Below, piece after piece: positions 8,125 to 54,748 of a DNA stretch of 64,000 nt. The notes under the pieces are model-generated. The model did no database searches. It saw only the letters and a program-made list of their open reading frames with translations, and had not been told where the DNA came from. This DNA comes from a virus (Duplodnaviria > Caudoviricetes). How positions within the stretch are numbered: the stretch's first letter is position 1; the number at the start of each line of letters is the position of its first letter. The stretch spans positions 1 through 64,000 of the IMG/VR virus record IMGVR_UViG_2595698755_000001; one strand, 5' to 3'. A program made the position numbers and the translations under genes.

Positions 8125-8179
8125 CGTTAATAAAGGCTATTTTAAGACCCCTATTTTCTTGATAAAATGATGATTTTAT
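8125..8179. repeat. Extended junction element (arm plus ATAAAA-N6-TTTTAT core)
   Basis: TTAATAAAGG at 8127; core ATAAAA-TGATGA-TTTTAT at 8162-8179. Confidence 0.7.
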
Positions 8180-8362
8180 TCAGCTAGTCCTATTGTTCCA
8201 AATCGAACTAAAACCTCACTATAAAGCTATTAAACACCTCAAACCACCGCATTCTATCACATTGGCTCAAAACGAACAAAATTCTACACAAGCGTAAAAA
8301 ATAATTCACACATGCCCGTACTGTTACATATGATACGATATAACGAAAAGGGAGATGATTAT

Positions 8363-8569
8363 ATGAAATCAAAAGAATATAGATTGGCTCAAATGCAATT
8401 AAGAAATATAGTGAACATTGGAATTGAAAATGGTATACCCCTAACAGATATCAGACTGTTGGCAATGGCTACTATTGATGCATCACAATTATTTATGGAT
8501 GATAAAGAGATTTCAGAATTAAGAATAGATTTATATAATAGGCTCAAATCGGTTGCAATTTATAGTTGA
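8363..8569 (+). CDS. Hypothetical protein
   Basis: Start MKSKE after AAGGGAG SD. Confidence 0.65.
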   Translation: MKSKEYRLAQMQLRNIVNIGIENGIPLTDIRLLAMATIDASQLFMDDKEISELRIDLYNRLKSVAIYS

Positions 8570-8631
8570 CAAGCATAAAATATAATGGTATACTCGGTAC
8601 AACATAAACAAATAATAAAGGGGAGATGTTT

Positions 8632-9300
8632 ATGAATACAATAGCTATTAATGATATGGAGCATATCCGAAATATGGTCGAAATCGGTGACAATGCTTAT
8701 GGTCAAGGTTTAAAAACATTCGATAGACTGGGACATGGATTTTATGGAACTGTTTATGGATACAAAGACTATGCCATTAAATATTTTAGATATGGCATGG
8801 ATTCATTCAGTAAAGATATTGAGATGTTAGTACGATTACAACATATAAAGCATGTACCCCGATTGTATGAAGTGATTGATAACAAGGCAATTGTAATGAG
8901 TAGAGTCAGAGGATATACAATAAACAGATACATGCAACATGTAGAATCGAAAAGGATTGATAATTTTGTCAGCCCCCGATTTAACATAGAATATAGGAAA
9001 GCATTGCAAGACATCATGAGAGCAGGTATTCATCCTGCTGACTTACATAACGAAAATGTAATGATTGAAGAGTCAACGGGATTACCCGTAATAGTAGATT
9101 TAGGTGAATTTAGAGATGAGAGTTTCAGTGAATTATCAATTGAGAATCTAAACTATATCGGTCATACAGATACATATGATGAGGTTATTGTACCAATGGA
9201 GAAATACATAAATGATACATACATACAAGAAGCAAATCAATACAAGGAAATGTTAATGGAAAGAATTGACTTAATGGGTGGCATAGCGAATATTTATTAA
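8632..9300 (+). CDS. Ser/Thr protein kinase-like protein
   Basis: Gly loop LGHGFYGTVY, YAIK lysine, catalytic loop ADLHNENV, DLG motif. Confidence 0.85.
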   Translation: MNTIAINDMEHIRNMVEIGDNAYGQGLKTFDRLGHGFYGTVYGYKDYAIKYFRYGMDSFSKDIEMLVRLQHIKHVPRLYEVIDNKAIVMSRVRGYTINRYMQHVESKRIDNFVSPRFNIEYRKALQDIMRAGIHPADLHNENVMIEESTGLPVIVDLGEFRDESFSELSIENLNYIGHTDTYDEVIVPMEKYINDTYIQEANQYKEMLMERIDLMGGIANIY

Positions 9301-9508
9301 AATATTCGCTTGACAAAAGAAATTAGGTATGATATACTTGAGTTAATCAAATAGGAGGTGATGCCTATATACATGATAACATACATACTGCATGGTATCC
9401 GTCATTCTAAATGTATTATATGTAGCAACATAGATACAGCAGTCGAGTCAATAGATGGTACTGCTACAATAGTAGAGATATATAAATCATATTAAGGGAG
9501 AGATGTTC

Positions 9509-9904
9509 ATGGCTACTAAAACTAAATCGAGAAATCGTTATTACAATCCAAATCCATTAAAGAAAGAAACTGGTGATTGTGTAATACGTGCAATGTGTAA
9601 AGCAACTGGTAGAGAATGGGATGATGTATATATAGAATTGTATAGAATAGGATTTGAATTAAAGGTAATGCCTAACGCTGATGAAGCGTGGAAACAATTC
9701 TTAATTAGCAATGGTTTCACTTATCATAAGTTAACTATCAAACGTGGCTCAAAACGCCCTAAAGTCTCTGAATTTGCACAACAAAACAAAACAGGTACAT
9801 TTGTATTGAGAGTAGCTAATCACCTTGTAACATGCGAGGATGGATATTATTATGACTTATGGGATAGTGGCACATGCTCATTATATGGATATTGGAGCAA
9901 ATAG
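9509..9904 (+). CDS. Conserved phage protein, possible Cys-His-Asp (papain-like) hydrolase
   Basis: GDCVIRA ... NHLV ... DGYYYDLWDS pattern. Confidence 0.6.
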   Translation: MATKTKSRNRYYNPNPLKKETGDCVIRAMCKATGREWDDVYIELYRIGFELKVMPNADEAWKQFLISNGFTYHKLTIKRGSKRPKVSEFAQQNKTGTFVLRVANHLVTCEDGYYYDLWDSGTCSLYGYWSK

Positions 9905-9981
9905 TGGTTCTAACACATTATGTGTTTTCATATAGATAGCAGTAAGCATAAAAAATAACCATAAAAAAGGGGATTGACAAC

Positions 9982-10365
9982 ATGATGAAAAGAACATTAA
10001 TAGGTTTGGTTGTTGGTTTATCATTTCTTTTGGTTGCAGTTGCTTGTACAGATACAGAGGTTAAAAAGGAATCAAAACAGGTACAAAAGAAAGAATCAAA
10101 GCCAGAGCCTAAACAAGAAGCCCCTAAGAACGATGGTAAGATAACTAAAACTGAATTTGATGCAGTCCAATCTGGAATGACATATGAAGAGGTAGTAGCA
10201 ATCATAGGAAGTGAAGGAGAAATGTTAAGCGAAGTAGGCTCAAAGGGTGAACAATTTCATAGTGTAATGTATGAATGGAAAGGAACAGGAGATTTTGGAG
10301 CAAATGCAAATTTCACATTCCAAGAAGGTAAGATGGAAATGAAAGCACAATTTGGATTGAAATAA
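9982..10365 (+). CDS. Lipoprotein, DUF3862/BLIP-like domain
   Basis: Lipobox AVAC; GMTYEEVVAIIGSEG...ANFTFQEGK..KAQFGLK. Confidence 0.75.
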   Translation: MMKRTLIGLVVGLSFLLVAVACTDTEVKKESKQVQKKESKPEPKQEAPKNDGKITKTEFDAVQSGMTYEEVVAIIGSEGEMLSEVGSKGEQFHSVMYEWKGTGDFGANANFTFQEGKMEMKAQFGLK

Positions 10366-10372
10366 CTGTTTC

Positions 10373-10397
10373 AGCCCACTTTCTAGTGGGTTTTTTC
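10373..10397 (+). terminator. Intrinsic terminator
   Basis: GCCCACT-TTCT-AGTGGGT followed by a T run. Confidence 0.75.
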
Positions 10398-10508
10398 TTG
10401 TACAACATTTGTACAACCCCTAACATAAAAATTTTAAATTATTGGTAATCGGACAAATACATAAGCACATAAGATAATGATATAACAAACAAACAGGAGC
10501 GTGATACT

Positions 10509-10688
10509 ATGTTAAATGAAGTGATGCATAAGAAGTATGTTAAACGTGTAATGGCTCATGGTGTACCGAAATACAAGGCGAGTGAGATTGTAGCTACTGC
10601 ACTTGAAACAGGTAAAGGAAAGAATATTGATACATACATTAATTATGCTATGACATTAGTGTATGGGTTAGGTTTTAAAGCAAATTAA
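10509..10688 (+). CDS. Small hypothetical protein (59 aa)
   Basis: Read by eye (MLNEVMHKKYVKRV...); AGGAG SD. Confidence 0.6.
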   Translation: MLNEVMHKKYVKRVMAHGVPKYKASEIVATALETGKGKNIDTYINYAMTLVYGLGFKAN

Positions 10689-10777
10689 AATTAATTTTAA
10701 ATGTTAGTCATCATCCCGTTGACAGGTGCATATAATAATGATATAGTCACAAAGACAACAGAAAAGGAGATGTTAAT

Positions 10778-11278
10778 ATGATTGAATTAAAAGATTATGA
10801 GTTAGATGGTATTCTAGACGGTGAAGAGGATGCACTGGAAAGCTTTTATGAATATAATGGTGACACATACATTTGTGATGCAACTACTGAAATAGCAGAT
10901 AATTACATTCCTATCTACAATTACAATGTATGGGAGAATGCTTCTGACATTCAAGAACACATTGAAGAAGCACTGTCAAATGGGTTAGTTGATACTAGTG
11001 GTGATGTGGATTTAATCAAGATATTCCAAGCAGGTTATTACCAGTATTACAGTGAACGTTTAAGCGAGAATCTAGACATATTATGTTACAACTATGTAGC
11101 AAAACTAGTAAATGATTACTTAGATAATGAAGATACAGATTCAATTGATGAAGATGCTATTGAATCACGTATTGAATCAGAAACAGACAGCTATGACCAT
11201 AACAACACATTCGATGCACTAGAAGAGATAGCAAAGACAATCATTGAAGAAATCAAAGAAGAAGAATTTGCAATGTGA
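10778..11278 (+). CDS. Ocr (T7 gp0.3)-like acidic DNA-mimic anti-restriction protein
   Basis: Very D/E-rich; DATTEIADNYIPIY and GLVDTSGDVDLIKIFQA resemble Ocr DAIHMAADNAVPHY and GLMPDTKDVIRILQA (Ocr recalled from memory). Confidence 0.65.
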   Translation: MIELKDYELDGILDGEEDALESFYEYNGDTYICDATTEIADNYIPIYNYNVWENASDIQEHIEEALSNGLVDTSGDVDLIKIFQAGYYQYYSERLSENLDILCYNYVAKLVNDYLDNEDTDSIDEDAIESRIESETDSYDHNNTFDALEEIAKTIIEEIKEEEFAM

Positions 11279-11284
11279 TTCAAT

Positions 11285-11312
11285 CCCTGCTTCGGCAGGG
11301 AAAATCTTTTTT
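11285..11312 (+). terminator. Terminator-like hairpin
   Basis: CCCTGC-TTCG-GCAGGG with a T run shortly downstream. Confidence 0.6.
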
Positions 11313-11382
11313 AGTAATTCGCTTGACAGGAGATAATAAGGTGTGGTATACTAGGTATAACAAAACAAGGGGAGATGATTGA

Positions 11383-11829
11383 ATGGCTAAAATGACAGTT
11401 CGTGAAGCGTTAGATTATGTAGTGAAAGCAAATGGGCAACCGTTCACAGTTGAATTACGTGATAATATATTGAAGTTCTTAACGTTATTACCTCATCATC
11501 CAAGTGAAACTAAATGGTTAGATAAAGGAGCAATCAAGACAGTTCGTGATTATGATTATGGTTGGTATGCAGAGGTTTTAGTTGAAGAGGTTAATGATAA
11601 GCTTGTTGTAGAGGTTATTGATGGAGATAACCTTGACCCTAATCCTAATCGTGTAAAATCAAATGAAGAAGCATTAGCATTGTTACAGGAGTATCGTGAG
11701 ATTAAGTTCGCTAGTGATATTGATGAGTATTGGAATATGAGTGATGACCACAAGTATTGGATAAGAATGAGTGAAATGGATACTAGAGCATTTGCAAAGC
11801 AAGATGAAATAAAAAGAAAACTTGCATAA
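11383..11829 (+). CDS. Hypothetical protein
   Basis: ORF with SD and its own class I promoter (11319-11352). Confidence 0.75.
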   Translation: MAKMTVREALDYVVKANGQPFTVELRDNILKFLTLLPHHPSETKWLDKGAIKTVRDYDYGWYAEVLVEEVNDKLVVEVIDGDNLDPNPNRVKSNEEALALLQEYREIKFASDIDEYWNMSDDHKYWIRMSEMDTRAFAKQDEIKRKLA

Positions 11830-11896
11830 ATCGCTTGACAAGAGCATAAGAATATAGTATACTAAGGGTAACAACAAAACGAGAGGATGATGTTAA

Positions 11897-12241
11897 ATGA
11901 CAAAACAAAGAAGAACGTTCACAGTAATTCGTAAATGGGCAGAGAAAATGGGTTACACAGTTGAGGAAACATGGGCATATGGTGACCAAGATGCAATTCG
12001 TGTTCATGTCAATGATAAACTATCATTTAAGGCTGAAATGAGAAAGAGCACAATTTATCAAAGTATTCGTGGTCAACGTGGTGATTGTGCAGGATTATAT
12101 ATCACAGAGGATATAAAGCATGAAGCAGGTAAAGCGTGGAGAAGAAGCTATGCATTCCACAAACCATCACAGAAGTATGCTATTGAGAGCATGGAATCAG
12201 ATATCAGAAGATGGGAACGTGACAACAAAAAAAATGCTTGA
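11897..12241 (+). CDS. Hypothetical protein
   Basis: ORF with SD and its own class I promoter (11831-11863). Confidence 0.75.
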   Translation: MTKQRRTFTVIRKWAEKMGYTVEETWAYGDQDAIRVHVNDKLSFKAEMRKSTIYQSIRGQRGDCAGLYITEDIKHEAGKAWRRSYAFHKPSQKYAIESMESDIRRWERDNKKNA

Positions 12242-12294
12242 TAAACGCAAAAGATTATGGTATACTTAGTACATAAATAGAGGGAGAGGATGCT

Positions 12295-12459
12295 ATGTCA
12301 ACAATTTTGAATGTGATATTAGGTGGATGGGGAATATTTTGGATGGGTGTAGGAATTAGAGATGTATTTAAAGGATATAAAACAAAAGATAAAATGTTTT
12401 ACTTTCTTTCAGCAATATCCTTTACTATAAGTATCATATTATTAACAGCAATTAAATAG
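12295..12459 (+). CDS. Small membrane protein
   Basis: Read by eye; two hydrophobic segments; GAGAGG SD. Confidence 0.55.
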   Translation: MSTILNVILGGWGIFWMGVGIRDVFKGYKTKDKMFYFLSAISFTISIILLTAIK

Positions 12460-12587
12460 GGAGAGTGATTATTATAAAAAATAAAAATAATAAAAAATCG
12501 CTTGACAAGAGAATGAATAGGGTGTATAATAAAGGTAACAACAAGCACAACAACAAAAAAACTAAAAAAATGACTGGAGTGTTGCGA

Positions 12588-13613: not shown

Positions 13614-13704
13614 TTTTTATAGGTTTCCTGCATCAAACAAACATAAAGCGCATATAATAATGATATAAACAACATCCAGAAGCTTCACACATCCTAGAAG
13701 GGAT

Positions 13705-14043: not shown

Positions 14044-14048
14044 GAGAG

Positions 14049-14815: not shown

Positions 14816-15277
14816 ATGAAATTGCAATTACTAATTGATAAATTAAATCATGATTTAACTGAAAAATTTAGAGGTGTGAAGTTTACAAATATAGGGACAC
14901 TTCATCTTGAAATTGTAAGACTTACAGATGAAATCCTTCAAAAATATGAAACAGGATTGGAAATAAATTATTGTTGGGATATTCATATCAAAGGTGAGTA
15001 CCATAAAGTAATGAAGTATGATATTGATTATACAGCAGATAAGCGTTACAAATATGAAACTAGGGGCAAAGTACATTTCATCACATTCTCAGCGTTAAAA
15101 GAGATGCCAGAAGATGCTACTGTAGCTGATTTAATCCATGCAATGCAGTTAGATAGCGCAAAAGAGAACTATGAGCGTATGCAGAAGGAAAGACTTGAAA
15201 TACTTGAAGATTTAGCTGTTAACAAAGAAGGTATTGATAGTTTGGCTAAAAAAATCAAAGCATTAGAATCCCGTTAA
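14816..15277 (+). CDS. Hypothetical protein
   Basis: ORF with GGAGG SD. Confidence 0.7.
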   Translation: MKLQLLIDKLNHDLTEKFRGVKFTNIGTLHLEIVRLTDEILQKYETGLEINYCWDIHIKGEYHKVMKYDIDYTADKRYKYETRGKVHFITFSALKEMPEDATVADLIHAMQLDSAKENYERMQKERLEILEDLAVNKEGIDSLAKKIKALESR

Positions 15278-15327
15278 TATACGGGGTTCTAGATACATAA
15301 GAAATATTGATAAAATAACGATTTTAT
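15272..15327. repeat. Extended junction element
   Basis: CGTTAATATACGG arm then ATAAAA-TAACGA-TTTTAT at 15310-15327. Confidence 0.65.
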
Positions 15328-17434: not shown

Positions 17435-17670
17435 TGGATTTATATAAAACAGACCTCATAAGAAAGCTTGAAAAGTTTAGAAGTAAAGCATGTTGTCAGC
17501 ATACATTATATCAAGCACACAATCTATGGACACAAGTTAAAGACCATCTTACAAAGCAACAGCAGTTAGATATAAGGGATGCATGGCATCATGCTAGGAT
17601 GGATAGCAACAAGGGAAATAAAGTGCTTCACGACACTGTGAATGCTGTTATTAAAGAGATAAAGGGATAA
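17434..17670 (+). CDS. Hypothetical protein
   Basis: GGAGG SD; stop codon lies inside a junction element. Confidence 0.6.
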   Translation: MDLYKTDLIRKLEKFRSKACCQHTLYQAHNLWTQVKDHLTKQQQLDIRDAWHHARMDSNKGNKVLHDTVNAVIKEIKG

Positions 17671-17698
17671 AAGAAATCTTTTATTAAGGAGGGGTTAT

Positions 17699-17863: not shown

Positions 17864-17896
17864 ATAAAAGGATTGTTTTATGAAAGGAGTGATTTG

Positions 17897-18049
17897 ATGA
17901 AAATTATAAAGAAAATAATCTGTTATTTTAAAGGTCATAAGACAGGGTTTTATGTTCATGATTTCGGTGAACAAGAAGGTCTTTATGGTGAAAGGTATAA
18001 AGATACAATGTATTGCAAGAGATGTGGTTATGGAGATTTGAGAGGTTGA
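17897..18049 (+). CDS. Small cassette-like gene (50 aa), C/H-rich
   Basis: MKIIKKIICYFKGHK...YCKRCG; lies between two junction sites. Confidence 0.6.
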   Translation: MKIIKKIICYFKGHKTGFYVHDFGEQEGLYGERYKDTMYCKRCGYGDLRG

Positions 18050-18241
18050 TAAAATTTTAGTTTGATACAGGAGGGTAGATATATGAGTATGACTGTAGCT
18101 GTTTTATTAGGTGCTCTTTGGGCTTTTAGTTGTATTGGAATAGGTTATTTCATAGCATGGTTTGAAGATAGAAAATAAAGTGTTGACAAGCACCAAGATT
18201 AATGGTATAATAAACTTATCAAAGAAAAGGGAGATGGTTGA

Positions 18242-20077: not shown

Positions 20078-20263
20078 GTGATGTGTATGGGATTCAAACT
20101 AGTTTGCAATACGTGCGGAGAAAGTAGCGATGTTAAATTAGATTTGTTGTTTGGTGCAAAATCTATTGACATAGATGGTAAGGTTGATGTTACAACAGGT
20201 GATTGGGAAATATTAAAAGTAGAATGTGAATGTGGAAATAAACTAGTTAGCGATGAGTTTTAA
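20078..20263 (+). CDS. Small zinc-ribbon-like protein
   Basis: CNTCG ... CECG; ends at junction site 20263-20280. Confidence 0.55.
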   Translation: MMCMGFKLVCNTCGESSDVKLDLLFGAKSIDIDGKVDVTTGDWEILKVECECGNKLVSDEF

Positions 20264-20296
20264 TAAAAGTCTGATTTTATATAGGAGGATGATATT

Positions 20297-21549: not shown

Positions 21550-21879
21550 ATGAGAAAATGGGAAGAAAAAGGATTTTCACCACCTGCTTCTGGTGGCTTG
21601 GTTGGATATTTGACAACAGAAAAAGGATTGTTTTATGTCTACTCAATTAATAAAGATATTGATGATATAGGTTTTGATTATTCAAAAACAGGTGATAAAT
21701 ACGACTTAGTTAAAAGCTATGAACTTGAAATCTATTATGATGAAGACTTTTTTGACAGAATGAAACCTCATGTCCAAGAGGTTCTAAAAGAGTTAGGAAT
21801 AGACAAACGTGCTTTCAAACTTTATGACGAATGGGAGAAAGAAATTGACAGAGTGCTTGGAAAGAGGATTTTTGAATAA
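21550..21879 (+). CDS. Hypothetical protein
   Basis: ORF; stop codon inside junction site 21876. Confidence 0.65.
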   Translation: MRKWEEKGFSPPASGGLVGYLTTEKGLFYVYSINKDIDDIGFDYSKTGDKYDLVKSYELEIYYDEDFFDRMKPHVQEVLKELGIDKRAFKLYDEWEKEIDRVLGKRIFE

Positions 21880-21907
21880 AATCTTAATTTTAACAAGGGG
21901 TGGTGTA

Positions 21908-22045: not shown

Positions 22046-22222
22046 ATGACAGTATTTGTATTGTATGTGTCTTATCCATATGAAGGTGGATATGTGCTTG
22101 GAGTGTATTCTACAAGAAAGAAAGCAGAAGAAGTAATGAATGATGAAGACTATGTACCTAACAAAGAATATGCAGAAATTAAAGAAATAACGCTTAATAA
22201 ATTTACAAGAATTGTAATTTAA
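22046..22222 (+). CDS. Small cassette-like gene (58 aa)
   Basis: Read by eye: MTVFVLYVSYPYEGGYVLGVYSTRKKAEE; between junction sites. Confidence 0.6.
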   Translation: MTVFVLYVSYPYEGGYVLGVYSTRKKAEEVMNDEDYVPNKEYAEIKEITLNKFTRIVI

Positions 22223-22253
22223 TAAAAACTCAATTTTATGAGGTGGTGATAAT

Positions 22254-22499
22254 ATGATATCTAAAACAGAAGTATTGAATAATAATGCAGTAGTAACATT
22301 CAGCTTATCAGAAAAAGAAATGGAAATCATGAAACATTTAAAAGAGCATGGTTGGATGGAATTTCGTAGAGGTGAGGGTAGTGAAATTGTAGATAGATTG
22401 TATGATTATGGTATTGTTACAAGTGATGATGATGCATGGCATTTCACAATCATACCAACAAAGGTTGGTAAGCAAATCATAAAAGCAATGGATGTATAA
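22254..22499 (+). CDS. Small cassette-like gene, possible winged helix
   Basis: ORF between junction sites. Confidence 0.6.
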   Translation: MISKTEVLNNNAVVTFSLSEKEMEIMKHLKEHGWMEFRRGEGSEIVDRLYDYGIVTSDDDAWHFTIIPTKVGKQIIKAMDV

Positions 22500-30324: not shown

Positions 30325-30555
30325 TAAAATCTTACTTTTATAAAGGAGTGATACTATGAAAAAAGAATTTAATTTCGTATTATGTACTAGTAGTGACCTT
30401 ACAGTCTTTAAAGCTACAGAATTAGGTGAAGGTGGATTATACAGAGTCTCATGGGATAATGACAAAGAATTTACACTTTATCGCCCAGAGCACGTTAAAA
30501 GCCACTTAGATAAAGGTAATTGGATTGAAGTAGATTAATAAAATTTCCCTTTTAT
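30324..30555. repeat. Two junction sites flanking one gene
   Basis: 30324-30341 and 30538-30555 around CDS 30356-30538. Confidence 0.75.
30356..30538 (+). CDS. Small cassette-like gene
   Basis: ORF between junction sites. Confidence 0.6.
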   Translation: MKKEFNFVLCTSSDLTVFKATELGEGGLYRVSWDNDKEFTLYRPEHVKSHLDKGNWIEVD

Positions 30556-33845: not shown

Positions 33846-34109
33846 ATGAAAGTAAAAAACAGATACCAAATCACAAATAAATTGGATTCTTACATTGTAA
33901 GGGAAACAGGAAGACGAATGGCTGAAAGTGGTGAAAGAGTAACAAAGGGAAAAATTATGGAAGAGATTGCAATTCATTCTGGTGTTGGTCTTGAGTCAAT
34001 TAAGTTAATTAACCGCAACGTTTCTCAACCTTCATTAGTAGTAGCATTAAGAATGGCAGATTACTTCGATACAAGAGTAGAAAATATATTTGACGTTCTA
34101 GAGGATTAA
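33846..34109 (+). CDS. XRE-family helix-turn-helix regulator
   Basis: EEIAIHSGVG...SQPSLVVALRMADYFDTRVENIF. Confidence 0.75.
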   Translation: MKVKNRYQITNKLDSYIVRETGRRMAESGERVTKGKIMEEIAIHSGVGLESIKLINRNVSQPSLVVALRMADYFDTRVENIFDVLED

Positions 34110-34692: not shown

Positions 34693-34770
34693 AAAAGTGT
34701 TTGACAGCCAAAAAAATTAATGATATAATGACATCATAAGTCGTCCAAAAAAGGAGGTAACTGAAACTAC

Positions 34771-34825
34771 CGTTAATAAAGGTAATTTCAGCACTCCTAA
34801 AATCTTGATAAAACAGTGTTTTTAT
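34771..34825. repeat. Extended junction element upstream of the MrpR-like gene
   Basis: TTAATAAAGG at 34773; core ATAAAA-CAGTGT-TTTTAT at 34808-34825. Confidence 0.7.
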
Positions 34826-34999: not shown

Positions 35000-36013
35000 A
35001 TGATGACTACCATGACAAACATAAATGATAATTCTTTATTTGAACAGGATGGTCGTAAACATGAATTTTTGGGTGGTATTGCACCTTCAACTGCTAAAAG
35101 TTATAAACGTATCTTTGGGTATACAAAACCTCACGAGGAAGCATTACAAAAGGATATACGTGACTTTAGCTTGGAAGAACTGGAAACAATCTTATATGAT
35201 TTCAAAGCAAATACAAGAAATACCGTTGAAACGTATGGTCGTATTATTTCTAGTTACCTTAACTGGTGTGTTGAAAATGGATACTCAAAAACAAATCCTT
35301 TAAAGAGTTTGAAGCCTACTGACTTTGAGAAATACCTTACTAATGTAGAAACTTATATGACAGAGAAACAATTGACACGTTATGAAGACAGATGTGTTAA
35401 TGCTCAAGATTCAGTTATTCTAAGACTTTCTTTCATTGGTGTAGGTGGCAAGCAAATGAGCGAGATTAGAAACCTAAAGAAGTCTGACATTGACTGGGCT
35501 AATCACCGCATACGTCTTGTTAACACTCTTAAAGAAGATGATAATGGTTTCCCTTTAAAGTATACAGAACGATATCTAGAAGTCGATGAGCGTACTCTAG
35601 ACCTTATTGAAGAAGCAATTGCTCAAAAGACTTATGAGAAAAAGAATGGTCAAATGGTTGAACAGGATAACATTAGAAAGTATACAGACTTAGTTGATAA
35701 TGATTATGTCATTAGGTCTTCTATAACAAATATTAAAGATGATGCTAAAATTAATGCACCTGCTGATAAATTTGTTATCTATAGAAGATTAGATGTAATC
35801 CAAGAAACTTTATCAATTAAAACATTAACTGCTAAATATGTACAACGTAGTGGTATGGTTTATTATGCTAATGAATTATTGAAAAATATGAAGGATGAAG
35901 AATTAACTTTAGATGAATTAAAAGTAGTCGCAGACCGCTTTAATATGAAAAGCTACCACAATCTAAAAGGATTCTTAACATTAGATACAATCCGCCAGAC
36001 CTACTCAAAATAA
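35000..36013 (+). CDS. Tyrosine-recombinase-fold repressor, SPbeta YopR/MrpR-like
   Basis: VNAQDSVILRLSFIGVGG..MSEI, YEKKNG, LVDNDYVIR, ADKFVI and LT..VQRSG resemble YopR as recalled; box I catalytic Arg and the His of HxxR are not evident. Confidence 0.75.
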   Translation: MMTTMTNINDNSLFEQDGRKHEFLGGIAPSTAKSYKRIFGYTKPHEEALQKDIRDFSLEELETILYDFKANTRNTVETYGRIISSYLNWCVENGYSKTNPLKSLKPTDFEKYLTNVETYMTEKQLTRYEDRCVNAQDSVILRLSFIGVGGKQMSEIRNLKKSDIDWANHRIRLVNTLKEDDNGFPLKYTERYLEVDERTLDLIEEAIAQKTYEKKNGQMVEQDNIRKYTDLVDNDYVIRSSITNIKDDAKINAPADKFVIYRRLDVIQETLSIKTLTAKYVQRSGMVYYANELLKNMKDEELTLDELKVVADRFNMKSYHNLKGFLTLDTIRQTYSK

Positions 36014-36030: not shown

Positions 36031-36348
36031 ATGCGTAAATTTTTAATTCATGATAAAGACATCAAATTAAATAAAAGTAAACTGGATGCAATTTTGGATT
36101 CTCAAAAAATGGACTATACCGAACTCCATGACAAAATTTGTAAACAGTTTGGTCTTAAAATTTCATACAAAGGATTCATGAATATTCTATCTAATCGGAA
36201 TAGTTGGAAGTTTCTATATGCTTATGCATTATGTGAACTTCTAAAAGTAAATTCTAATGACATATTCGAATTAGTAGATGTAGATGTGGATGCCGAACGT
36301 GTGGAACGTGAGAATATGAAGAAGCGTGATGTACGCAATAAATATTAA
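36031..36348 (+). CDS. Putative HTH DNA-binding protein
   Basis: XRE-like end AYALCELLKVNSNDIFEL; downstream of the repressor. Confidence 0.55.
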   Translation: MRKFLIHDKDIKLNKSKLDAILDSQKMDYTELHDKICKQFGLKISYKGFMNILSNRNSWKFLYAYALCELLKVNSNDIFELVDVDVDAERVERENMKKRDVRNKY

Positions 36349-48474: not shown

Positions 48475-48632
48475 TAGATTACATTACATACGGGTTATCA
48501 ATATTATTCTTCTTAGGAATCTGTTTTGGGATGTTATTATTCATAAAAGACATGATTTTTAGTCTTTGGCAGTTGATTGACCAAGAAAGTTACGAAAAGT
48601 GGGAAAACCGTAAAATGTCGAAACTAAAATCT

Positions 48633-48687
48633 CCTTAATAAAGGGGATTTTCGACACCCACTTTTCTTAATAAAATAGAGATTTTAT
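48633..48687. repeat. Extended junction element heading the second accessory array
   Basis: TTAATAAAGG at 48635; core ATAAAA-TAGAGA-TTTTAT at 48670-48687. Confidence 0.7.
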
Positions 48688-48903: not shown

Positions 48904-48915
48904 GGAGGTGATTCT

Positions 48916-49820: not shown

Positions 49821-49824
49821 TAGT

Positions 49825-50124: not shown

Positions 50125-50308
50125 ATGGGTACGTGTGTTTGGAGTAAATGATTTACATAATTCCGATGAGTTTAGAATGTTTGAACCAGATGGAAGACCA
50201 GTGATTGGTGAGAATGGTCAAGTGGTTTTTAAGGCTATCAGTGAGCCTTACTGGAACGATGACCTTTGCACATGGATGATTGATATTGAGAACCGTAAAC
50301 TACGATAA
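50090..50308 (+). CDS. Hypothetical protein
   Basis: ORF in operon. Confidence 0.55.
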   Translation: MKRTVEVKRKNEWVRVFGVNDLHNSDEFRMFEPDGRPVIGENGQVVFKAISEPYWNDDLCTWMIDIENRKLR

Positions 50309-50319
50309 GAGGTGATGCT

Positions 50320-50673
50320 ATGAAGCGTTTAAAGATAGCTACATTAATGTTTGCAGTAACTATTGTTATGAGTGCTTTGAGTGGTTGTGGAACACCGTCA
50401 GATTACGACAACATAAATGAAAATGTCACAATTACAGATACAAAAGTAGCTAAGTTTGATACAGAAAACGTAGGCAGGTCATCTGCTCATGTAATTTATT
50501 TTGAAAAAGATGGCAACTCTACAAAGTTTAGAGTATCTCCTGCTTTGTATGAAGATGTAGAGAAGATACTTAATACTGCAAGAATGGTAGGCAAAGAAAA
50601 AGAATTGAAGTTTGATGTTGTAACTGATGGTAAGGACGTAGTTAGTGTAACATTATCTTCAAATAGAAAATAG
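50320..50673 (+). CDS. Lipoprotein
   Basis: Lipobox LSGC. Confidence 0.7.
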   Translation: MKRLKIATLMFAVTIVMSALSGCGTPSDYDNINENVTITDTKVAKFDTENVGRSSAHVIYFEKDGNSTKFRVSPALYEDVEKILNTARMVGKEKELKFDVVTDGKDVVSVTLSSNRK

Positions 50674-50683
50674 GAGTGATTGG

Positions 50684-51094
50684 ATGGAAGGTTTAAAATT
50701 AATAGAACAAGTGTTTGCAGATGTAATTGAAGAATATGGAAGTATGGATTTATATGAAATTGAAGACCTTGAAGGTGTAACAGAATATGACGATGATATT
50801 GATTATAATGATGATTGGTATAATTTTCATATAGTAACCTTTAAATATAAGGGTAAATACTATTCTTTTGAATATAAACGCCACACATCTGATAACGTTT
50901 GTGATACAGAATATTTCTATGGGACATTCAAAGAAATTAAGATTCTAAAACCATTAGAGCTTTTTGGTGGAATTAAAGATGATTTCACTCTTAATAAAGA
51001 TACTTTCACACAGGCAGAAGTAATTACACTTTTACATCTAAGTCCTTATCAGATTCACCAATTGTTAAAGGAAGTTGAGGACAATGACATCTAA
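50684..51094 (+). CDS. Acidic hypothetical protein
   Basis: AGGAG SD; D/E/Y-rich. Confidence 0.65.
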   Translation: MEGLKLIEQVFADVIEEYGSMDLYEIEDLEGVTEYDDDIDYNDDWYNFHIVTFKYKGKYYSFEYKRHTSDNVCDTEYFYGTFKEIKILKPLELFGGIKDDFTLNKDTFTQAEVITLLHLSPYQIHQLLKEVEDNDI

Positions 51095-51629
51095 GTTTTA
51101 CGTTTATAGATTCCTAGACGTACTAGGAACAGTCTTATACATAGGTAGAACCAATGATTTGAAAAGGCGTTTAGAAAATGAACACTTCTCAAAATATGGT
51201 CACCTTCCAAAAGAATGTTATGATAAATGTGCAACGATAGAGTTTATGGAGTTTGATTCTGAGTCCGAGATGAAGGTCTATGAACTCTATCTTATAAATA
51301 GATATTCTCCACAATATAATGTTATGGAGAACCGCAACGATAATTTTACATTTATTTTAAAAGAAGACTGGACAAAAGTTAAAAATAATGATATAATAAA
51401 TAAGAAGGAATATAAGATATACTCTTACATAGTGATGCATTCAGATGTTGGCAAGTTTAGAACTACTACAACATTGACTGCTCTTGCAGAAGGTCTGAAA
51501 ATGAAACACAAAGATAAATTGTGGAAGTTATTAGAATCACTACAACGTAAGGGTTATATTTATGTACAACAGCTTGGTATGACACTGATAATAAGTCATA
51601 CGTTGAGAGACTTAGAGTTTCCAAAATAA
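51084..51629 (+). CDS. GIY-YIG nuclease-domain protein
   Basis: YVYRF...LYIGRT..LKRR...E..LI....PQYN. Confidence 0.8.
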   Translation: MTSKFYVYRFLDVLGTVLYIGRTNDLKRRLENEHFSKYGHLPKECYDKCATIEFMEFDSESEMKVYELYLINRYSPQYNVMENRNDNFTFILKEDWTKVKNNDIINKKEYKIYSYIVMHSDVGKFRTTTTLTALAEGLKMKHKDKLWKLLESLQRKGYIYVQQLGMTLIISHTLRDLEFPK

Positions 51630-51651
51630 AAATTACAAGGTGGATGATAGT

Positions 51652-52527
51652 ATGGAAAGAAAAATGGGAATAATTACTTTTTTAAATGTGATGAGCAGTT
51701 GGAATCAAGTGCCTACAATTGAATTAGTAGATAATATTGGACTTTTAAGAAATGTAGTACCTTCAAGAACAAAGGTTGCGACATATAAAGACGGTACGAA
51801 TATCGGATTAACTAGAACATTTTTAAATACAGAATGGAAATACATAGAAAATCATAAAACATTTACAGAAGCTTATAATGAAGCAAAAAGCCAAAATCAA
51901 AGTCAAATTGTAGGATTGCTAGGAGATAGATATGAATTTTCATATATTGGCGGTGGAGTAGAAAGTATGCCAATATCGGCATTGACAAGTTTGAATATTT
52001 CTTTCAAGGATTTAGTAGAAGGTAAAATGTGGGAGACATATTCTGGATGGTCGTCACCTTTAGATGGGGAGCAAGCTTCAAGTCCTACTGAACCTAGAAA
52101 CTTTAATTTCACTGAAACAGTGGAGAATTTGCTTGGAGCATCTATTCCTCATTATATGATTCAATTTAATACAGGAAGAAAGATACATTTAGATGCAGAT
52201 GGCATTAAAGATGCTTTAACTGAACAGATTGTAGAATTAGATGCATCACTTTACTTGTCTGGTGCATGGTATGTAGGAGAAGACGTTGTAGAAACAGGGG
52301 GCGGTAATATGACACTTACAGAAGCGGTTGGTCAAGTGGATTGGCAGACACAGGATTTAGTATTCTTAGCAGGAACAAATAAGGAATTTAGAATCTATGG
52401 TGCAAATAACTATTCAGAAGTGAATTTATATAATGCAATACCAAAAAACATTAGAGACACAGAAACAGTACATTCAATATTGTTTGCTAACTCTTGGAGT
52501 TTAGCACCTGCATATACAGGAGCATAA
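51652..52527 (+). CDS. Hypothetical protein with about four degenerate tandem units
   Basis: Repeating (F/L)TE(A/T) ... L.....W pattern. Confidence 0.65.
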   Translation: MERKMGIITFLNVMSSWNQVPTIELVDNIGLLRNVVPSRTKVATYKDGTNIGLTRTFLNTEWKYIENHKTFTEAYNEAKSQNQSQIVGLLGDRYEFSYIGGGVESMPISALTSLNISFKDLVEGKMWETYSGWSSPLDGEQASSPTEPRNFNFTETVENLLGASIPHYMIQFNTGRKIHLDADGIKDALTEQIVELDASLYLSGAWYVGEDVVETGGGNMTLTEAVGQVDWQTQDLVFLAGTNKEFRIYGANNYSEVNLYNAIPKNIRDTETVHSILFANSWSLAPAYTGA

Positions 52528-52567
52528 TGGTTAGGGGTTATCCCCTAACTCATTAATAAAAGGAGGA

Positions 52568-52846
52568 ATGTCAATGAAGAAAACATTATTAGTAACTTTA
52601 ATCGGATTGACAGCTTTAACATTAGGTGCTTGTGGTTATGAGCAAGGCTCAACAGTTTATGGTGGAAAATTCAAAGTCATTGGAGATGTTGGTGGAAACT
52701 ATGCCCTTTTAAGAGATGTTGACACAGGTTGTATATACATCGAACGGACATCTTCATACCCTTCTATATCAGCTTTCTTTGATGAGAATGGTAAAGTAGC
52801 AGGTTGTGGTCAAACAGACTTCGACACTAAAAAATATGATAAATAA
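52568..52846 (+). CDS. Lipoprotein, DUF6440-like
   Basis: Lipobox LGAC; RDVDTGCIY; resembles the 15448 gene. Confidence 0.65.
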   Translation: MSMKKTLLVTLIGLTALTLGACGYEQGSTVYGGKFKVIGDVGGNYALLRDVDTGCIYIERTSSYPSISAFFDENGKVAGCGQTDFDTKKYDK

Positions 52847-53012
52847 GGTGATTAAATGCAAATAGGAGATTACAAGATTCATCGTAAAGACCAATGGGAT
52901 TTACATTGCAAGCCTATCATCTGCATTCACAAATACTATGATGGTGGTAATGGATGTAAACGAGTATTTTGTTTCTGGTTTGACGGACTAAAATTGAAAT
53001 GGAGTCGATAAT

Positions 53013-53357
53013 ATGGCACATATTGATGGTTATGCAGATTTTTTAGTAGAAGATGTACGAGTGAAATTAGGATACGATGCAAAGGATTCTAGTCATGATG
53101 ACGAAGTGTTAGCAAGACTTACAGCAGGTGAAAAGATTTCAAAATCAAAACATCTTAAACAACCTAAGTATCATGTAGGGCAAGTCTTAGTTGACAATAG
53201 TAGACCAGATGCAAATATGAAAATCATTACAGTGTCTCCACAAGTAGATTATACAGGTGAATTTTCATATTTCATTCAATGGAATGAAGATGGAGAGATT
53301 TGGTTTGCAGTCTTTGACGAAGAATATATTACTGATTGGTTTAAGGAGGTCAAATAA
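53013..53357 (+). CDS. Hypothetical protein
   Basis: ORF with SD. Confidence 0.6.
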   Translation: MAHIDGYADFLVEDVRVKLGYDAKDSSHDDEVLARLTAGEKISKSKHLKQPKYHVGQVLVDNSRPDANMKIITVSPQVDYTGEFSYFIQWNEDGEIWFAVFDEEYITDWFKEVK

Positions 53358-53593
53358 TGCAAGCCTTTGAAGTGATGTATGATATTGGTGGTAGTAGTGG
53401 TAATCGTGTTGTTTTGTTGGTAAAAGATGAATCATTTTTAGAGGTTGCTTTATCCGAAAAGACAGAATATAGAATTGGTAATCAGTTTTCTAGAATTAGA
53501 CGTAAGGTAGAAATACCATTAACTAGAGTTATGGTGAAAGATTTATCTATTACAGAATTACTAGCATGGCAGAGAGTTGTGATTGTAGATTGA
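53357..53593 (+). CDS. Hypothetical protein
   Basis: AAGGAGG SD. Confidence 0.6.
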   Translation: MQAFEVMYDIGGSSGNRVVLLVKDESFLEVALSEKTEYRIGNQFSRIRRKVEIPLTRVMVKDLSITELLAWQRVVIVD

Positions 53594-53729
53594 TAGCTAA
53601 GATTTATGTTTGCAACCATTGTCAATTGATTACCGAACCAATCACATATACTCCTACATGTAAGTGTGGGAGAGAAATGATTGAAGGAACAGATGAATAA
53701 AACTACATTTTATAAAGGGGATTGATATT

Positions 53730-53945
53730 ATGTTAAACGCAATCGTTGTTTTAGAGGATAATAAAAATCGAAGAGAACTTAATTTAAAATATAAAATGGT
53801 GGATGATATGCCAATAACAAAAGTTTCATTTGAGAATTTGGGCAATGGTATATTTTACTCATTTAGACAGGTTTATAAGTCTCTTGGAGCAGAAGTGGAA
53901 TTAGTAATTAACGCTGACAAAGTAGTTGAAATCAAAACAATATAG
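53730..53945 (+). CDS. Hypothetical protein
   Basis: Follows the N5 junction variant 53697-53713. Confidence 0.55.
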   Translation: MLNAIVVLEDNKNRRELNLKYKMVDDMPITKVSFENLGNGIFYSFRQVYKSLGAEVELVINADKVVEIKTI

Positions 53946-53958
53946 AAGGAGAGATTCT

Positions 53959-54168
53959 ATGCGTTGGAGAAGTAAGTCGGATTTCATTTCTGTAGGAGAT
54001 ACTAGATACATAACAAAATTCCTTTTATTCCCAAAGAAGATAAATAGAGAATGGCGTTGGCTAGAACGTGCAACAATCCTACAAAAATGTGTTGAGAGAA
54101 TGAATAGTGGGTCAATGGATTATGGATATCACAAGGTGTGGATGGATATACAGTGGATTAAACGATAA
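53959..54168 (+). CDS. Hypothetical protein
   Basis: AAGGAG SD; KFLLFPKKI..EWRWLE motif. Confidence 0.55.
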   Translation: MRWRSKSDFISVGDTRYITKFLLFPKKINREWRWLERATILQKCVERMNSGSMDYGYHKVWMDIQWIKR

Positions 54169-54540
54169 TCTAATAGAGGGGTGATTAAAATGTCACTTGG
54201 AGGATTAGGCTTAATTGGTACTTGTATCTTTGCAGGAGTTTTGGTTTGGTTTGCATATACACGAATTAAAAAATAGGAGTGATAATATGATAGAATTTAT
54301 TCAAGCAATTGATTGGCAAAGTTTTTATGTTGGTGTTGTAACTACTATAATAGTTGGTGGATTAGGTGCAGTATTACTTGGAGCAATTGGTGAAGGACTG
54401 TGACACGATATGACGAACTGACAAAGGTTTATAGCGAAGAAGAAGTCGAATTAATAGAGTATGTATCATGGCTTTGGTTTCGATGTACTGGCAGTGACCA
54501 TAGAGATAAAATCTATGAGGAAATGATTAAAGAGAGAAAT

Positions 54541-54748
54541 ATAAAATGATACTTTTATGAGGTGATTCAATGATTAAATGTGTATGCGGTCAAGTAATGA
54601 AAGAAACAGTAGAACAATGTTTCTTTAAAGAAGATTGCAAAGGTTGTGGAGTTTGTGAAAACGGATTTGTAAAAATTGTATCTTGTGAAAATCCAGACTG
54701 CACCGTTTGTGATGTAGACGTAGATTTTGAATAAAAGGATAATTTTAT
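54541..54748. repeat. Two junction sites flanking a small Cys-rich ORF
   Basis: 54541-54558 and 54731-54748. Confidence 0.7.

Follow-up and report, generated by a model that had tools for sequence, protein, structure and literature searches.

Spacer-specific palindromic boxes at gene joints appear to anchor the exchange of small genes in a lineage of large temperate Firmicutes phages

The window that we analyzed, the left 64 kb (64,000 nucleotides) of the 168,876-bp genome of a Tsamsavirus-like temperate Bacillus siphophage, carries many copies of a palindromic box, ATAAAA-N6-TTTTAT, at the joints between genes. Judged by comparison with related phages, the boxes appear to be fixed joints, that is, positional anchors at which the neighboring small genes were swapped; a cassette-like picture is supported, to this extent, by the comparative data. 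An earlier sequence-only reading had proposed that the phage captures, excises or shuffles single accessory genes at these sites in an integron-like manner; that interpretation is partly supported by the results described here.

The window contains 13 exact copies of the box, with 0.11 expected, and the maximum in 100 dinucleotide shuffles is one. When spacer lengths from 0 to 15 are scanned, N6 gives 13 copies and N5 gives one, with none at the remaining 14 lengths; arrangements in which the arms are not inverted occur 0–2 times each. Of the 17 sites listed in the sequence-only reading, 13 are exact, those at 18049, 21876 and 22012 have one mismatch (in the right arm each time), and that at 53697 is an N5 copy. 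Copies with two mismatches give no signal above background (16 with N6 vs 26–47 at other spacers). In the whole genome, we find 20 exact copies vs none for the pattern read backwards.

The palindrome of 18 bases is the core of a dyad-symmetric box of 26 bp, CTnnATAAAA-N6-TTTTATnnAG; among 150 unique sites, T occupies position −3 in 129 and A the mirror position in 123. Base-pair covariation is absent from these flanks: Watson-Crick pairs at −3/+20 number 107 (null, 107.4), and those at −2/+19 (40 vs 57.8) and −1/+18 (33 vs 37.0) fall below the null. Folded as RNA, the 26-nt box has a mean minimum free energy of −2.3 kcal/mol (range 0 to −5.1; 23 sites). The boxes are, then, real, phage-specific and dyad-symmetric, and they are not stable RNA hairpins; flank symmetry without covariation is of the type seen with DNA–protein contacts, so a protein may bind them. 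The sites are listed below (the boxes without strand), together with a gene that figures in the discussion.

8162..8179, box, spacer TGATGA; backbone copy, preceded by a terminator-like hairpin and followed after ~130–180 nt by the next plus-strand gene
15310..15327, box, spacer TAACGA; hairpin precedes, Shine-Dalgarno begins 2 nt past the right arm
17667..17684, box, spacer GAAATC; gene joint, stop codon TAA within the left arm
17864..17881, box, spacer GGATTG; gene joint
18049..18066, one-mismatch box, right arm TTTGAT, spacer TTTTAG
20263..20280, box, spacer GTCTGA; gene joint
21876..21893, one-mismatch box, right arm TTTTAA, spacer TCTTAA
22012..22029, one-mismatch box, right arm TTTTAA, spacer TTTTAC
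22222..22239, box, spacer ACTCAA
22496..22513, box, spacer ACTGAA
30324..30341, box, spacer TCTTAC
30538..30555, box, spacer TTTCCC
34808..34825, box, spacer CAGTGT; hairpin precedes, 175 nt upstream of the MrpR/SroF-like gene
35000..36013, plus strand, MrpR/SroF-family protein with an integrase fold (P0001), from Pfam and PDB matches
48670..48687, box, spacer TAGAGA; hairpin precedes, Shine-Dalgarno directly after
53697..53713, decayed N5 copy; equivalent to the ACTACA anchor after loss of one base
54541..54558, box, spacer TGATAC; stop codon TGA of the upstream ORF inside the spacer
54731..54748, box, spacer GGATAA

As had been noted from the sequence, the preceding ORF ends with a stop codon within or adjoining the left arm at 13 of the 17 sites, and at the same 13 a Shine-Dalgarno begins 0–4 nt past the right arm; a terminator-like hairpin precedes the box at four (8162, 15310, 34808 and 48670). 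The observation that consecutive sites enclose a single small ORF is confirmed at the four clusters for which it was made (17667/17864/18049, 21876/22012/22222/22496, 30324/30538 and 54541/54731). The boxes occupy non-coding joints between genes or transcription units, with the exception of one within the tape-measure ORF. Two boxes elsewhere in the genome (102514 and 144128) are located between convergent genes, or just behind a stop codon and ahead of a terminator, and no gene start follows them.

All of the 12 relatives scanned carry 13–22 exact copies (e.g., 21 each in Kirov and Thrax3); in 11 assembled genomes, these 13–22 copies compare with 0–2 at spacers of 4, 5, 7 and 8. Exact copies are also found in FADO (30), Geobacillus E3 (17), SPbeta, a distantly related model phage (SPBc2; 13), and phi3T (phi3Ts; 14), with 0–1 for the backwards control, and N6 is the only spacer length found in SPBc2 and E3. 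Exact copies are absent from SPO1, Bastille and two Paenibacillaceae genomes; phage G is at chance (five copies vs four for the control), and an Alicyclobacillus phage with an MrpR-like gene has only two boxes. The box is an ancient feature of a single lineage of large temperate phages of Firmicutes that includes the Tsamsa-like 'Tyroviruses', Geobacillus E3 and SPbeta/phi3T. Its presence in SPbeta and E3, and at backbone places that are conserved, suits a binding site with a regulatory or architectural role.

Across the genomes compared, 194 sites share only 51 different spacers; no spacer occurs twice in a genome, and the spacers follow a collinear order in 10 genomes. The small-gene regions of different phages keep the box, its spacer and its place in the order, and the genes on either side are unrelated (blastp cut-off of 1e-3): the GAAATC anchor (17667) is flanked by six upstream and five downstream protein families in seven phages, the GGATTG anchor (17864) by four and seven in seven phages, the TCTTAA anchor (21876) by six and seven in seven phages, and the TTTCCC anchor (30538) by seven and five in nine phages. 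The conserved island at these anchors is the 18-mer plus the Shine-Dalgarno. Despite unrelated flanks, 22 of 36 comparisons in variable regions show a box that is collinear and has an identical spacer; backbone spacers drift, with 10 of 33 identical in comparisons with Sophrita, Nate and Thrax2. For example, relatives keep the 8162 box at the matching place, with a spacer that has drifted or been flipped (TCATCA in Nate). Variant copies are also shared: the arm and spacer at 18049 recur in KoopaTroopa, MrDarsey, Skywalker and Nate, and the anchor that matches 53697 has the N6 spacer ACTACA in Thrax4, KoopaTroopa and MrDarsey, so the window genome has lost one base there.

In two deletions, the joint falls within a pair of boxes with spacers one base apart. 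Izhevsk lacks the gene at 22254–22499, and its joint consists of the 22222 box (ACTCAA) and the right flank of the next box (ACTGAA); in Skywalker, the left half of the 22012 box (TTTTAC) continues, across a deletion of ~8 kb, into the TCTTAC anchor's right flank. With unrelated genes flanking the same anchor and these joints inside sites, the proposed shuffling of genes at the boxes gains support in part.

In the relatives, sharp homology transitions fall in box windows 25 times in 464, with 3.7 expected; however, gene gaps of every kind are enriched in such breakpoints, not the boxes alone. Boxes have 1.04 events per window vs 0.80 at other gene gaps (p=0.024), but in variable regions alone the values are 1.47 and 1.29, which do not differ significantly (p=0.14). 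An earlier, cruder count gave 2.75 vs 1.62 (p=0.009), and 3.00 vs 2.17 in variable regions alone (p=0.051). Identity jumps at 11 backbone boxes are no higher than at 246 control gaps (p=0.06). Breakpoints are, therefore, weakly commoner at boxes than at other gene gaps. The joints lie on either side of the box or within it; between phi3Ts and SPBc2, five of the 47 listed transitions are at boxes (0.18 expected), and identity begins exactly at the left arm at three boxes. Per 60-nt window, the boxes have 2.39 breakpoints and 35 sigma-A promoters have 0.89, a comparison that is confounded because many of the promoters sit in conserved regions.

As a tentative explanation, which we favor without strong confidence, the box may be a protein-bound, dyad-symmetric element at gene and operon joints that doubles as a short linker through which genes are exchanged where sequences are identical. 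A protein would bind the box on double-stranded DNA, the likeliest candidates being the three recombinase-fold proteins that the lineage shares. With its own spacer and Shine-Dalgarno, a box would give related genomes a stretch of 18–30 identical bp at matching positions, so that recombination requiring identity could replace the ORFs between two boxes; occasional exchange between boxes with nearly identical spacers would delete or move genes. The exchange is more likely driven by general homologous recombination, of the phage or the host, at these short linkers. A point against a linker is that, if any short repeat served, the 35 similar sigma-A promoters should be rich in breakpoints, and they have fewer.

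The exchange would resemble that of the promoter-terminator PeSL (promoter-early stem-loop) cassettes of T4-type phages, regulatory cassettes that Comeau et al. 2014 reportedly described. According to the available part of Arbiol et al. 2010 (PMC2839356), small, non-essential ORFs in hyperplastic regions are surrounded by short conserved non-coding motifs, at which close relatives differ by insertions, deletions and replacements; exchange can also take place between neighboring copies, so that a single ORF is lost or moved, as in the phages studied here. However, a PeSL is there a sigma-70 promoter plus a terminator stem-loop of ~50–60 bp with copies that are all alike, whereas the box is an 18–26-bp palindrome with a locus-specific spacer and a kept order that cannot be recognized as a promoter or terminator; the early promoters repeated in this phage are not its preferred joints. 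PeSL mini-circles have been demonstrated.

Tyrosine recombinase core sites also have inverted arms around a short center (11-6-11 in Xer/dif, 13-8-13 in Cre/loxP), and we consider it doubtful, though worth weighing, that the boxes are such sites, with arms of ~10 bp that bind two protomers and strand exchange across the 6-bp spacer. Because the spacers within a genome all differ, only the same box on another genome could recombine, that is, on a co-infecting relative, a resident prophage or a sister copy; the result would be an exchange of cassettes in register, the natural equivalent of recombinase-mediated cassette exchange in which each lox variant pairs only with its like. The 10+6+10 geometry with symmetric flanks, the distinct spacers in a kept order, the joints beside and inside boxes, the rearrangements between spacers 1 nt apart, and the higher breakpoint count than at the longer repeated promoters are all consistent with this. 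The genome encodes three proteins with the tyrosine recombinase fold, all among the 15 ORFs common to the window genome, SPbeta and E3; the YomM/gp50-like protein (R, E, K, HxxR, H and Y all present) and the YopP-like protein are kept in SPbeta and E3 alongside the box. The intact recombinase sought elsewhere in the genome may thus be the YomM/gp50-like protein, which looks catalytically intact, but the available part of PMC9703825 gives gp50 of Tyrovirus another candidate site, a putative 11-6-11 attP directly after its gene, which we see at 130149. The YopP-like protein has Lys at the expected Arg II position. The protein encoded beside the 34808 box (35000–36013) is assigned by its matches (Pfam MrpR_N_CB, 5.9e-26, and MrpR_C_cat, 4.8e-16; PDB 9rd5_H, 3.2e-23, and 8a0a, 3.8e-21) to the MrpR/SroF repressors, a catalytically dead family, and its residues at the Arg I and first His positions, mapped via Table 3 in the available part of PMC10516654, are not conserved. 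The boxes differ from core sites in number, at 13–30 per genome, and in that no two share a spacer. Also against core sites are the distinctness of the spacers, equally expected by chance (~24 draws from 4096), the free drift of backbone spacers, and the variable-region breakpoint rate, which is not significantly above that of other gaps.

The same protein raises the alternative, which we regard as unlikely, that the boxes are operators or transcription roadblocks of an MrpR/SroF-like repressor that silences the phage in the lysogen. A box lies ~160–190 nt upstream of its gene in the window genome, Kirov and Thrax3 (a sigma-A-like promoter, TTGACA-17-TACAAT, intervenes after the 34808 box); in the available text of bioRxiv 10.1101/2025.11.27.690993, phi3T SroF recognizes a box of 26 bp that contains the TTTTAT hexamer twice and has an A-tract shape. 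This operator (SPBRE for MrpR, that is, YopR) resembles ours in being multi-copy, ~26 bp, A-tract-rich, TTTTAT-based, intergenic and from the same lineage, and SPBRE-type boxes are scarce in the window genome (one exact, 10 with at most one mismatch) compared with SPBc2 (seven and 35). However, SroF is described there as binding its non-palindromic box as a monomer, SPBRE is a direct repeat, and SPbeta and phi3T carry both elements, the SPBRE/SroF box being the one that MrpR/SroF was shown to bind in these phages; in the available part of the SPbeta ChAP-seq study (PMC10516654), the 10 MrpR peaks are at SPBRE, palindromes are at only three of them (yorE, yorM and yorZ), and at least eight SPbeta palindromes are not among the reported peaks. 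SPBRE adjoins the palindrome at only three of the 13 SPbeta copies. Most boxes in the window genome lie between promoterless genes and not on the ~35 strong, very similar early sigma-A promoters, whose own conserved A-rich spacer could hold the real operator; still, 12 of 24 boxes overlap weak promoter-like sequences, vs 5.1 ± 2.0 at random places. It is likewise improbable that the box is a transcription signal (start site, UP-like element or activator site) for the following gene, despite its position after terminators and shortly before a Shine-Dalgarno in the window genome, SPbeta and E3, the strong −35 that starts 3–7 nt downstream of the box end in some relatives (the UP-element position), and the extended −10-like string TTGATAAAAT in five backbone boxes. 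A consistent −35 or −10 is absent, the −10-like reading failing at about half of the sites, those without a T-initial spacer; the boxes at 102514 and 144128 and that in the tape-measure ORF also do not fit. A sigma-70 region 2 gene was not found in the gene search of the phage genome, nor a YonO homologue by blastp, and YonO uses one promoter in SPbeta (PMC5467207). Least credible, and in our view very unlikely, is a role in mRNA as a hairpin, processing site or translational operator 5′ of the ribosome-binding site: the arms are complementary, the Shine-Dalgarno is close in most window sites, and the SPbeta record labels one copy a stem_loop, but the predicted structure is weak (0.0 kcal/mol at several sites), the flanks have no compensatory changes, and no gene start follows at 8162, 34808, 102514 or 144128.

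The likeness to integrons lies in the consecutive small promoterless ORFs with a palindrome resembling a recombination site between each. Neither attI nor an IntI-type integrase was identified in the phage genome. The attC sites of integrons are longer, imperfect palindromes that travel with the cassette and recombine with IntI as folded single strands; here, as judged from the comparisons, the boxes are positional anchors that stay put and the ORFs change, so the integron-like part of the earlier proposal is not borne out.

The window is the left 64 kb of a virus record (168,876 bp) that has direct terminal repeats (the whole record is designated G000). In the aligned parts, its DNA is 93–94% identical to that of vB_BanS-Thrax4 and Izhevsk, Bacillus phages of the genus Tsamsavirus, and 78–88% identical to that of KoopaTroopa, MrDarsey, Skywalker, Chewbecca, Nate, Thrax2, and Sophrita; all of these belong to the large temperate siphophages of the B. 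cereus group, named ‘Tyroviruses’ in PMC9703825. From ~7 to 34 kb the window is dense with small + strand genes behind strong sigma-A promoters, followed by the replication genes (genes were called with a crude ORF filter).

The window contains 13 exact copies of ATAAAA-N6-TTTTAT (the ‘box’), as compared with 0.11 expected; when the spacer length was scanned, N6 was found 13 times, N5 once, and 14 other spacings never, and other arrangements of the arms gave 0–2 copies. The sites and the fixed spacing described in the sequence-only reading are, therefore, confirmed; three of its sites have one mismatch each, in the right arm, and copies with two mismatches occur in the window at background level. 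We name each box by its six spacer bases and refer to a box with a given spacer at the matching place across related phages as an anchor; the single N5 site, at 53697, is the relatives' ACTACA anchor minus one base. The same reading placed the sites at gene junctions, and this also holds: in 13 of the 17 window sites the upstream stop codon is in or adjoins the left arm and a Shine-Dalgarno sequence is located 0–4 nt past the right arm. Four of the 17 sites come after a terminator-like hairpin. G000 contains 20 exact copies, seven of them outside the window and spaced ~10 kb apart through the replication and structural modules; an exact box is found inside the tape-measure ORF (~3,085 codons; G000 121918–121935), and its spacer is unchanged in 8 of 11 genomes, the exceptions being Nate, Thrax2, and Sophrita.

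The terminator-like hairpins directly 5′ of four boxes (window 8115–8145, 34762–34790, 48622–48650, and 15255–15280) have stems that co-vary and a conserved loop, TTAATAAA (TTAATATA at the 15310 box); the stretch of ~60 bp from hairpin to box can be aligned among the copies.

Conservation extends symmetrically past the arms in 150 non-redundant sites from the 11 genomes (sites that share ancestry): position −3 is T in 129 and its mirror is A in 123; for position −4 and its mirror the counts are 65 (C) and 96 (G). The spacer has little consensus. The extended consensus is CTnnATAAAA-N6-TTTTATnnAG, that is, inverted arms around a strict N6, the geometry of a tyrosine recombinase core site (arms around a 6–8 bp crossover region). 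No base-pair covariation was found between the mirror flank positions of the 150 sites, and the 26-nt box folds weakly as RNA (mean MFE −2.3 kcal/mol, with several sites at zero). Symmetric flanks without covariation, together with the weak fold, are the pattern of duplex DNA contacted by protein in two equivalent places and not that of a hairpin; an extended hairpin, an intrinsic terminator, and a stable RNA hairpin were rejected because of the missing covariation and the weak fold.

Each of the 11 assembled Tsamsa-like genomes contains 13–22 exact copies of the box and 0–2 copies with spacers of 4, 5, 7, or 8; Kirov (from another subfamily) and Thrax3 each contain 21. More surprisingly, the box and its strict N6 recur in more distant phages: FADO of B. 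subtilis has 30 copies, Geobacillus virus E3 has 17, SPbeta (SPBc2) has 13, and phi3Ts has 14, whereas only 2 were counted in an Alicyclobacillus phage. Among the control Bacillus phages, SPO1 and Bastille have no copies and phage G has 5 (vs 4 for the reversed pattern). A search of genome contigs for homologous loci gave only two weak matches, in Paenibacillaceae; these two chromosomes, used as pattern controls, contain no copies. The presence of the box in this lineage and its absence in the controls indicate an old trait of one phage lineage instead of a host signal, and a site for a host factor common to Bacillus phages is ruled out by SPO1, Bastille, and G. In SPbeta and E3, the boxes are located a few bases 5′ of a gene's Shine-Dalgarno sequence, on either strand, or directly past terminators; one SPbeta copy is annotated as a stem_loop in its record.

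The 194 exact sites in the 11 genomes have only 51 spacers, and the order of the spacers is the same in every genome, also when one-mismatch variants are included. In the variable regions (those with small genes), the 18-mer and the Shine-Dalgarno sequence that follows it are identical, and the ORFs on either side are from unrelated protein families: the GGATTG anchor has 4 upstream and 7 downstream families in 7 phages, the TCTTAA anchor 6 and 7 families in 7 phages, and the TTTCCC anchor 7 and 5 families in 9 phages. The segment from GAAATC to GGATTG differs in length: here it measures 197 bp, whereas Nate has 235 bp and three relatives have 437–438 bp; also, some gene families are located behind different anchors in different phages. 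The arrangement departs here from that of integrons, to which the sequence-only reading likened it: in an integron attC travels with its upstream ORF, whereas here the sites remain at the same rank in 7–9 phages with 4–7 unrelated upstream and 5–7 unrelated downstream families. An attC site is an imperfect palindrome of about 57–141 bp with extrahelical bases; in contrast, the box measures 18 bp, or 26 bp if the flanks are counted; its 6-bp arms are perfect, and neither covariation nor longer pairing is found. Integrons also have an IntI-type integrase beside an attI site and a Pc promoter; searched with the PF00589 and MrpR-family profiles, the genome has three matching proteins, none at the head of an array.

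In comparisons with Sophrita, Nate, and Thrax2, backbone boxes (those with homologous flanks) have the same spacer in 10 of 33 cases; in the variable regions, a collinear box with an identical spacer but unrelated flanks is found in 22 of 36, a count of the presence of the same spacer and, thus, not strictly the same measure. Because backbone spacers drift while those in the variable regions match, function alone does not keep the spacers constant; shared descent of the linkers through exchange best explains why they are identical in the variable regions.

We then asked how specific the breakpoints are to the boxes. Of 464 sharp homology transitions relative to nine relatives (counted per relative and, therefore, not independent events), 25 are in box windows, with 3.7 expected by position alone. 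However, gene gaps are hot in general, with 1.04 events per window at boxes vs 0.80 at other gaps (p = 0.024); in the variable regions only, the values are 1.47 and 1.29 (p = 0.14). A cruder count gives 2.75 vs 1.62 (p = 0.009) and, for the variable regions, 3.00 vs 2.17 (p = 0.051). Strong promoters have 0.89 breakpoints per 60 nt and boxes 2.39, a comparison confounded by the many promoters in conserved DNA; identity jumps at backbone boxes were not significant. Homology to the relatives stops to the left of the box, to its right, or on both sides with about equal frequency. Two rearrangements have joints within box pairs, where identical sequence hides the exact crossover: Izhevsk is missing the gene at 22254–22499, and its joint combines the left part of the ACTCAA box with the right flank of the ACTGAA box; in Skywalker, a joint across ~8 kb links the TTTTAC box with the sequence that flanks the TCTTAC box on the right. 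At several anchors, the right-arm variant TTTTAA occurs together with a ‘caagg’ ribosome site; this pairing puts some joints inside the box.

In SPbeta compared with phi3T, near-identity begins exactly at the left arm of three boxes, and 5 of 47 listed transitions (several of them near-duplicates) are at boxes, with 0.18 expected; a further ~25 borders are not at boxes. Three phi3T-SPbeta hybrids evolved in the laboratory have blocks specific to one parent that end at these same boxes; however, the crossovers are located in stretches that are identical in both parents, so the hybrids reveal only the natural mosaic borders. Taken together, exchange is less specific to the boxes than the pictures of the anchors suggest.

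Three recombinase-fold proteins are encoded by G000, and all are among only 15 ORFs common to this genome, SPbeta, and E3. The features inside and outside the window discussed below are the following.

Window 35000–36013, + strand: MrpR/SroF-like protein (P0001), 175 nt downstream of the site at 34808, annotated as a tyrosine recombinase in relatives
Window 36031–36348: small gene flanking the MrpR-like gene, annotated as a transcriptional regulator in relatives
Window 33846–34109: small gene flanking the MrpR-like gene, annotated as an XRE-family HTH protein in relatives
G000 130149–130176: 11-6-11 inverted repeat with one mismatch, directly 3′ of the YomM/gp50-like gene
Window 8566, 9310, 10719, 11323, 11835, 12502, 14350, 18183, 18630, 19081, 20870, 23190, 24019, and others: strong sigma-A promoter family

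P0001 matches the MrpR-based Pfam families PF22822 (N-terminal core-binding; 5.9e-26) and PF22823 (C-terminal catalytic-like; 4.8e-16), both past the cut-offs, the MrpR/YopR structure 8a0a (3.8e-21) and that of a close relative, 9rd5 (3.2e-23), in the PDB, and SPBc2 yopR (tblastn, 2e-17). MrpR is the master repressor of SPbeta, with an integrase fold that has lost recombinase activity and that binds the SPBRE element (PMC10516654). Based on the structure alignment and Table 3 of the same paper, Arg I is replaced by V148/G149 and the first His by K279; E155 and K187 are retained, and R283 adjoins Arg II (the alignment ends at residue 317, short of the Tyr). Judged by its domains, P0001 is a member of the MrpR/SroF repressor family and, judged by this alignment, shares the family's loss of the catalytic Arg and His. 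Tyrosine recombinases are characterized by the catalytic residues R-E-K-HxxR-H-Y. The two additional PF00589 proteins are encoded outside the window: P0003 (YomM/gp50-like) has these residues, that is, all of the recognisable catalytic positions, and P0002 (YopP-like) has Lys at the expected position of Arg II. P0003 is, thus, a candidate for the catalytically intact recombinase that the sequence-only reading proposed to look for elsewhere in the genome. For the type phage of the genus, three such enzymes have been reported, in a text that includes no promoter, motif, or inverted repeat (PMC3903500). The repeat at G000 130149–130176 is the putative attP of PMC9703825; it is unrelated to the ATAAAA box. 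With E values up to 0.01 accepted, the products of the two small flanking genes match no Pfam family; they, too, are candidate binders of the box or candidate antirepressors.

Assigning the box as the MrpR operator is favoured by the protein family, and almost no SPBRE-type boxes are found in this genome, so the idea is still alive here. The separate elements in SPbeta and the list of ChAP-seq peaks speak against it. The SPBRE/SroF operator is a direct A-tract repeat with a TAAAAATAAAAT core, and the palindrome is a different arrangement; the phi3T homologue SroF, as a monomer, recognises a 26-bp element in which two TTTTAT hexamers stand in tandem (bioRxiv 10.1101/2025.11.27.690993). SPBc2 contains many SroF-type boxes that are distinct from the palindromes and adjoin one at three places only, and, of the ten MrpR peaks named in PMC10516654, three (yorE, yorM, and yorZ) are at palindromes; that list has no entry for the palindromes in front of yomS, mtbP, and yotJ, for the one separating yonH from yonI, or for some others. 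In addition, the 7–68 kb region contains a family of 35 very strong sigma-A promoters (shared extended consensus roughly tcgcTTGACAag ... AAAAATAATGATATAAT); no other words in the genome are as over-represented as their 10-mers, which reach 30 copies. The A-rich spacer conserved in ~30 very similar early promoters is a more natural place for a MrpR/SroF-like master repressor and could be the real operator. We, therefore, regard a function of the box as repressor operator or roadblock as distinctly improbable. We assign the same low probability to a transcription signal: weak promoter-like matches overlap 12 of 24 boxes (5.1 at random), but a sigma-A promoter was not adopted because only the box at G000 132272–132289 (minus strand) overlaps a strong one, its spacer TTGAAA being the −35 of the near-consensus TTGAAA-17-TATAAT with TG. 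A YonO-type late promoter was rejected because blastp identified no homologue; that YonO uses one start site in SPbeta (PMC5467207) also counts against it. A phage sigma factor was rejected because the profile search gave no Sigma70_r2 match. Given the folding energy and the lack of covariation, action as RNA is highly improbable.

We tentatively favour, as possible although short of probable, a box that would be bound by protein, as DNA, where genes and operons meet and that would bear the evolutionary footprint of a fixed linker: the ORFs between boxes would be exchanged by a process that needs sequence identity, with general homologous recombination as the engine, like the promoter-early stem-loop (PeSL) cassettes of T4-type phages (PMC2839356). 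Like PeSL, the box is a conserved non-coding motif that ends indels and replacements between close relatives; however, PeSL combines a strong early promoter with a terminator stem-loop, whereas the box has no consistent sigma-A promoter and only a weak hairpin, and the early promoters here are a repeat family separate from the box. Exchange catalysed at the boxes by a site-specific recombinase is unlikely: the inverted arms around N6 have the core-site geometry and P0003 has the catalytic residues, but P0001 and P0002 are missing some of theirs and breakpoints are not specific to boxes. Homology-driven and catalysed exchange are not separable from sequences because the sequence around every joint is identical. 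One form of the latter, a built-in ‘allelic crossover’, is quite unlikely; in it, a recombinase-fold protein common to SPbeta, E3, and the Tyroviruses would recombine only boxes with identical spacers, co-resident phages or prophages would swap genes and modules in register, and selection for compatibility with the gene pool would keep variable-region spacers identical across subfamilies. This would be a natural cassette exchange between sites that pair only with their own kind.

SPbeta and phi3T are model temperate phages and Tsamsa-like phages are candidates against the Bacillus cereus group; these phages share a strictly spaced element, in 13–30 copies, at the joints where genes are swapped. 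In the open-access texts searched, papers on these phages contain no passage on the box, and no title listed for SPbeta/phi3T hybrids and breakpoints concerns such a motif; the 1999 SPbeta genome paper, outside that scope, may describe the palindromes as stem-loops. If one of the three conserved recombinase-fold proteins binds the box, YopP or YomM, for which the literature covered names no function, would acquire one, and gene regulation or genome architecture would be tied to the building of mosaic genomes. Were the boxes sites of catalysed recombination, horizontal exchange would be organised in a new way, and mutually exclusive (orthogonal) sites would be available ready for use; if they are only regulatory sites used as short homology, the PeSL idea would extend from T4-type phages to a Gram-positive temperate lineage.

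Two additional observations concern the arrangement of the box. At SPBc2 113663, 116414, and 132746, a palindrome, 6 nt, an SPBRE-type A-tract box, and a ribosome site follow one another as a composite element; these elements are located before mtbP, after yorZ, and before yotJ. Also, at matching backbone sites, the spacer can be the exact reverse complement (TGATGA at window 8162 vs TCATCA at Nate 7949, and TTGTGA at Chewbecca 8000 vs TCACAA at Sophrita 9304), that is, the loop is flipped between the palindromic arms.
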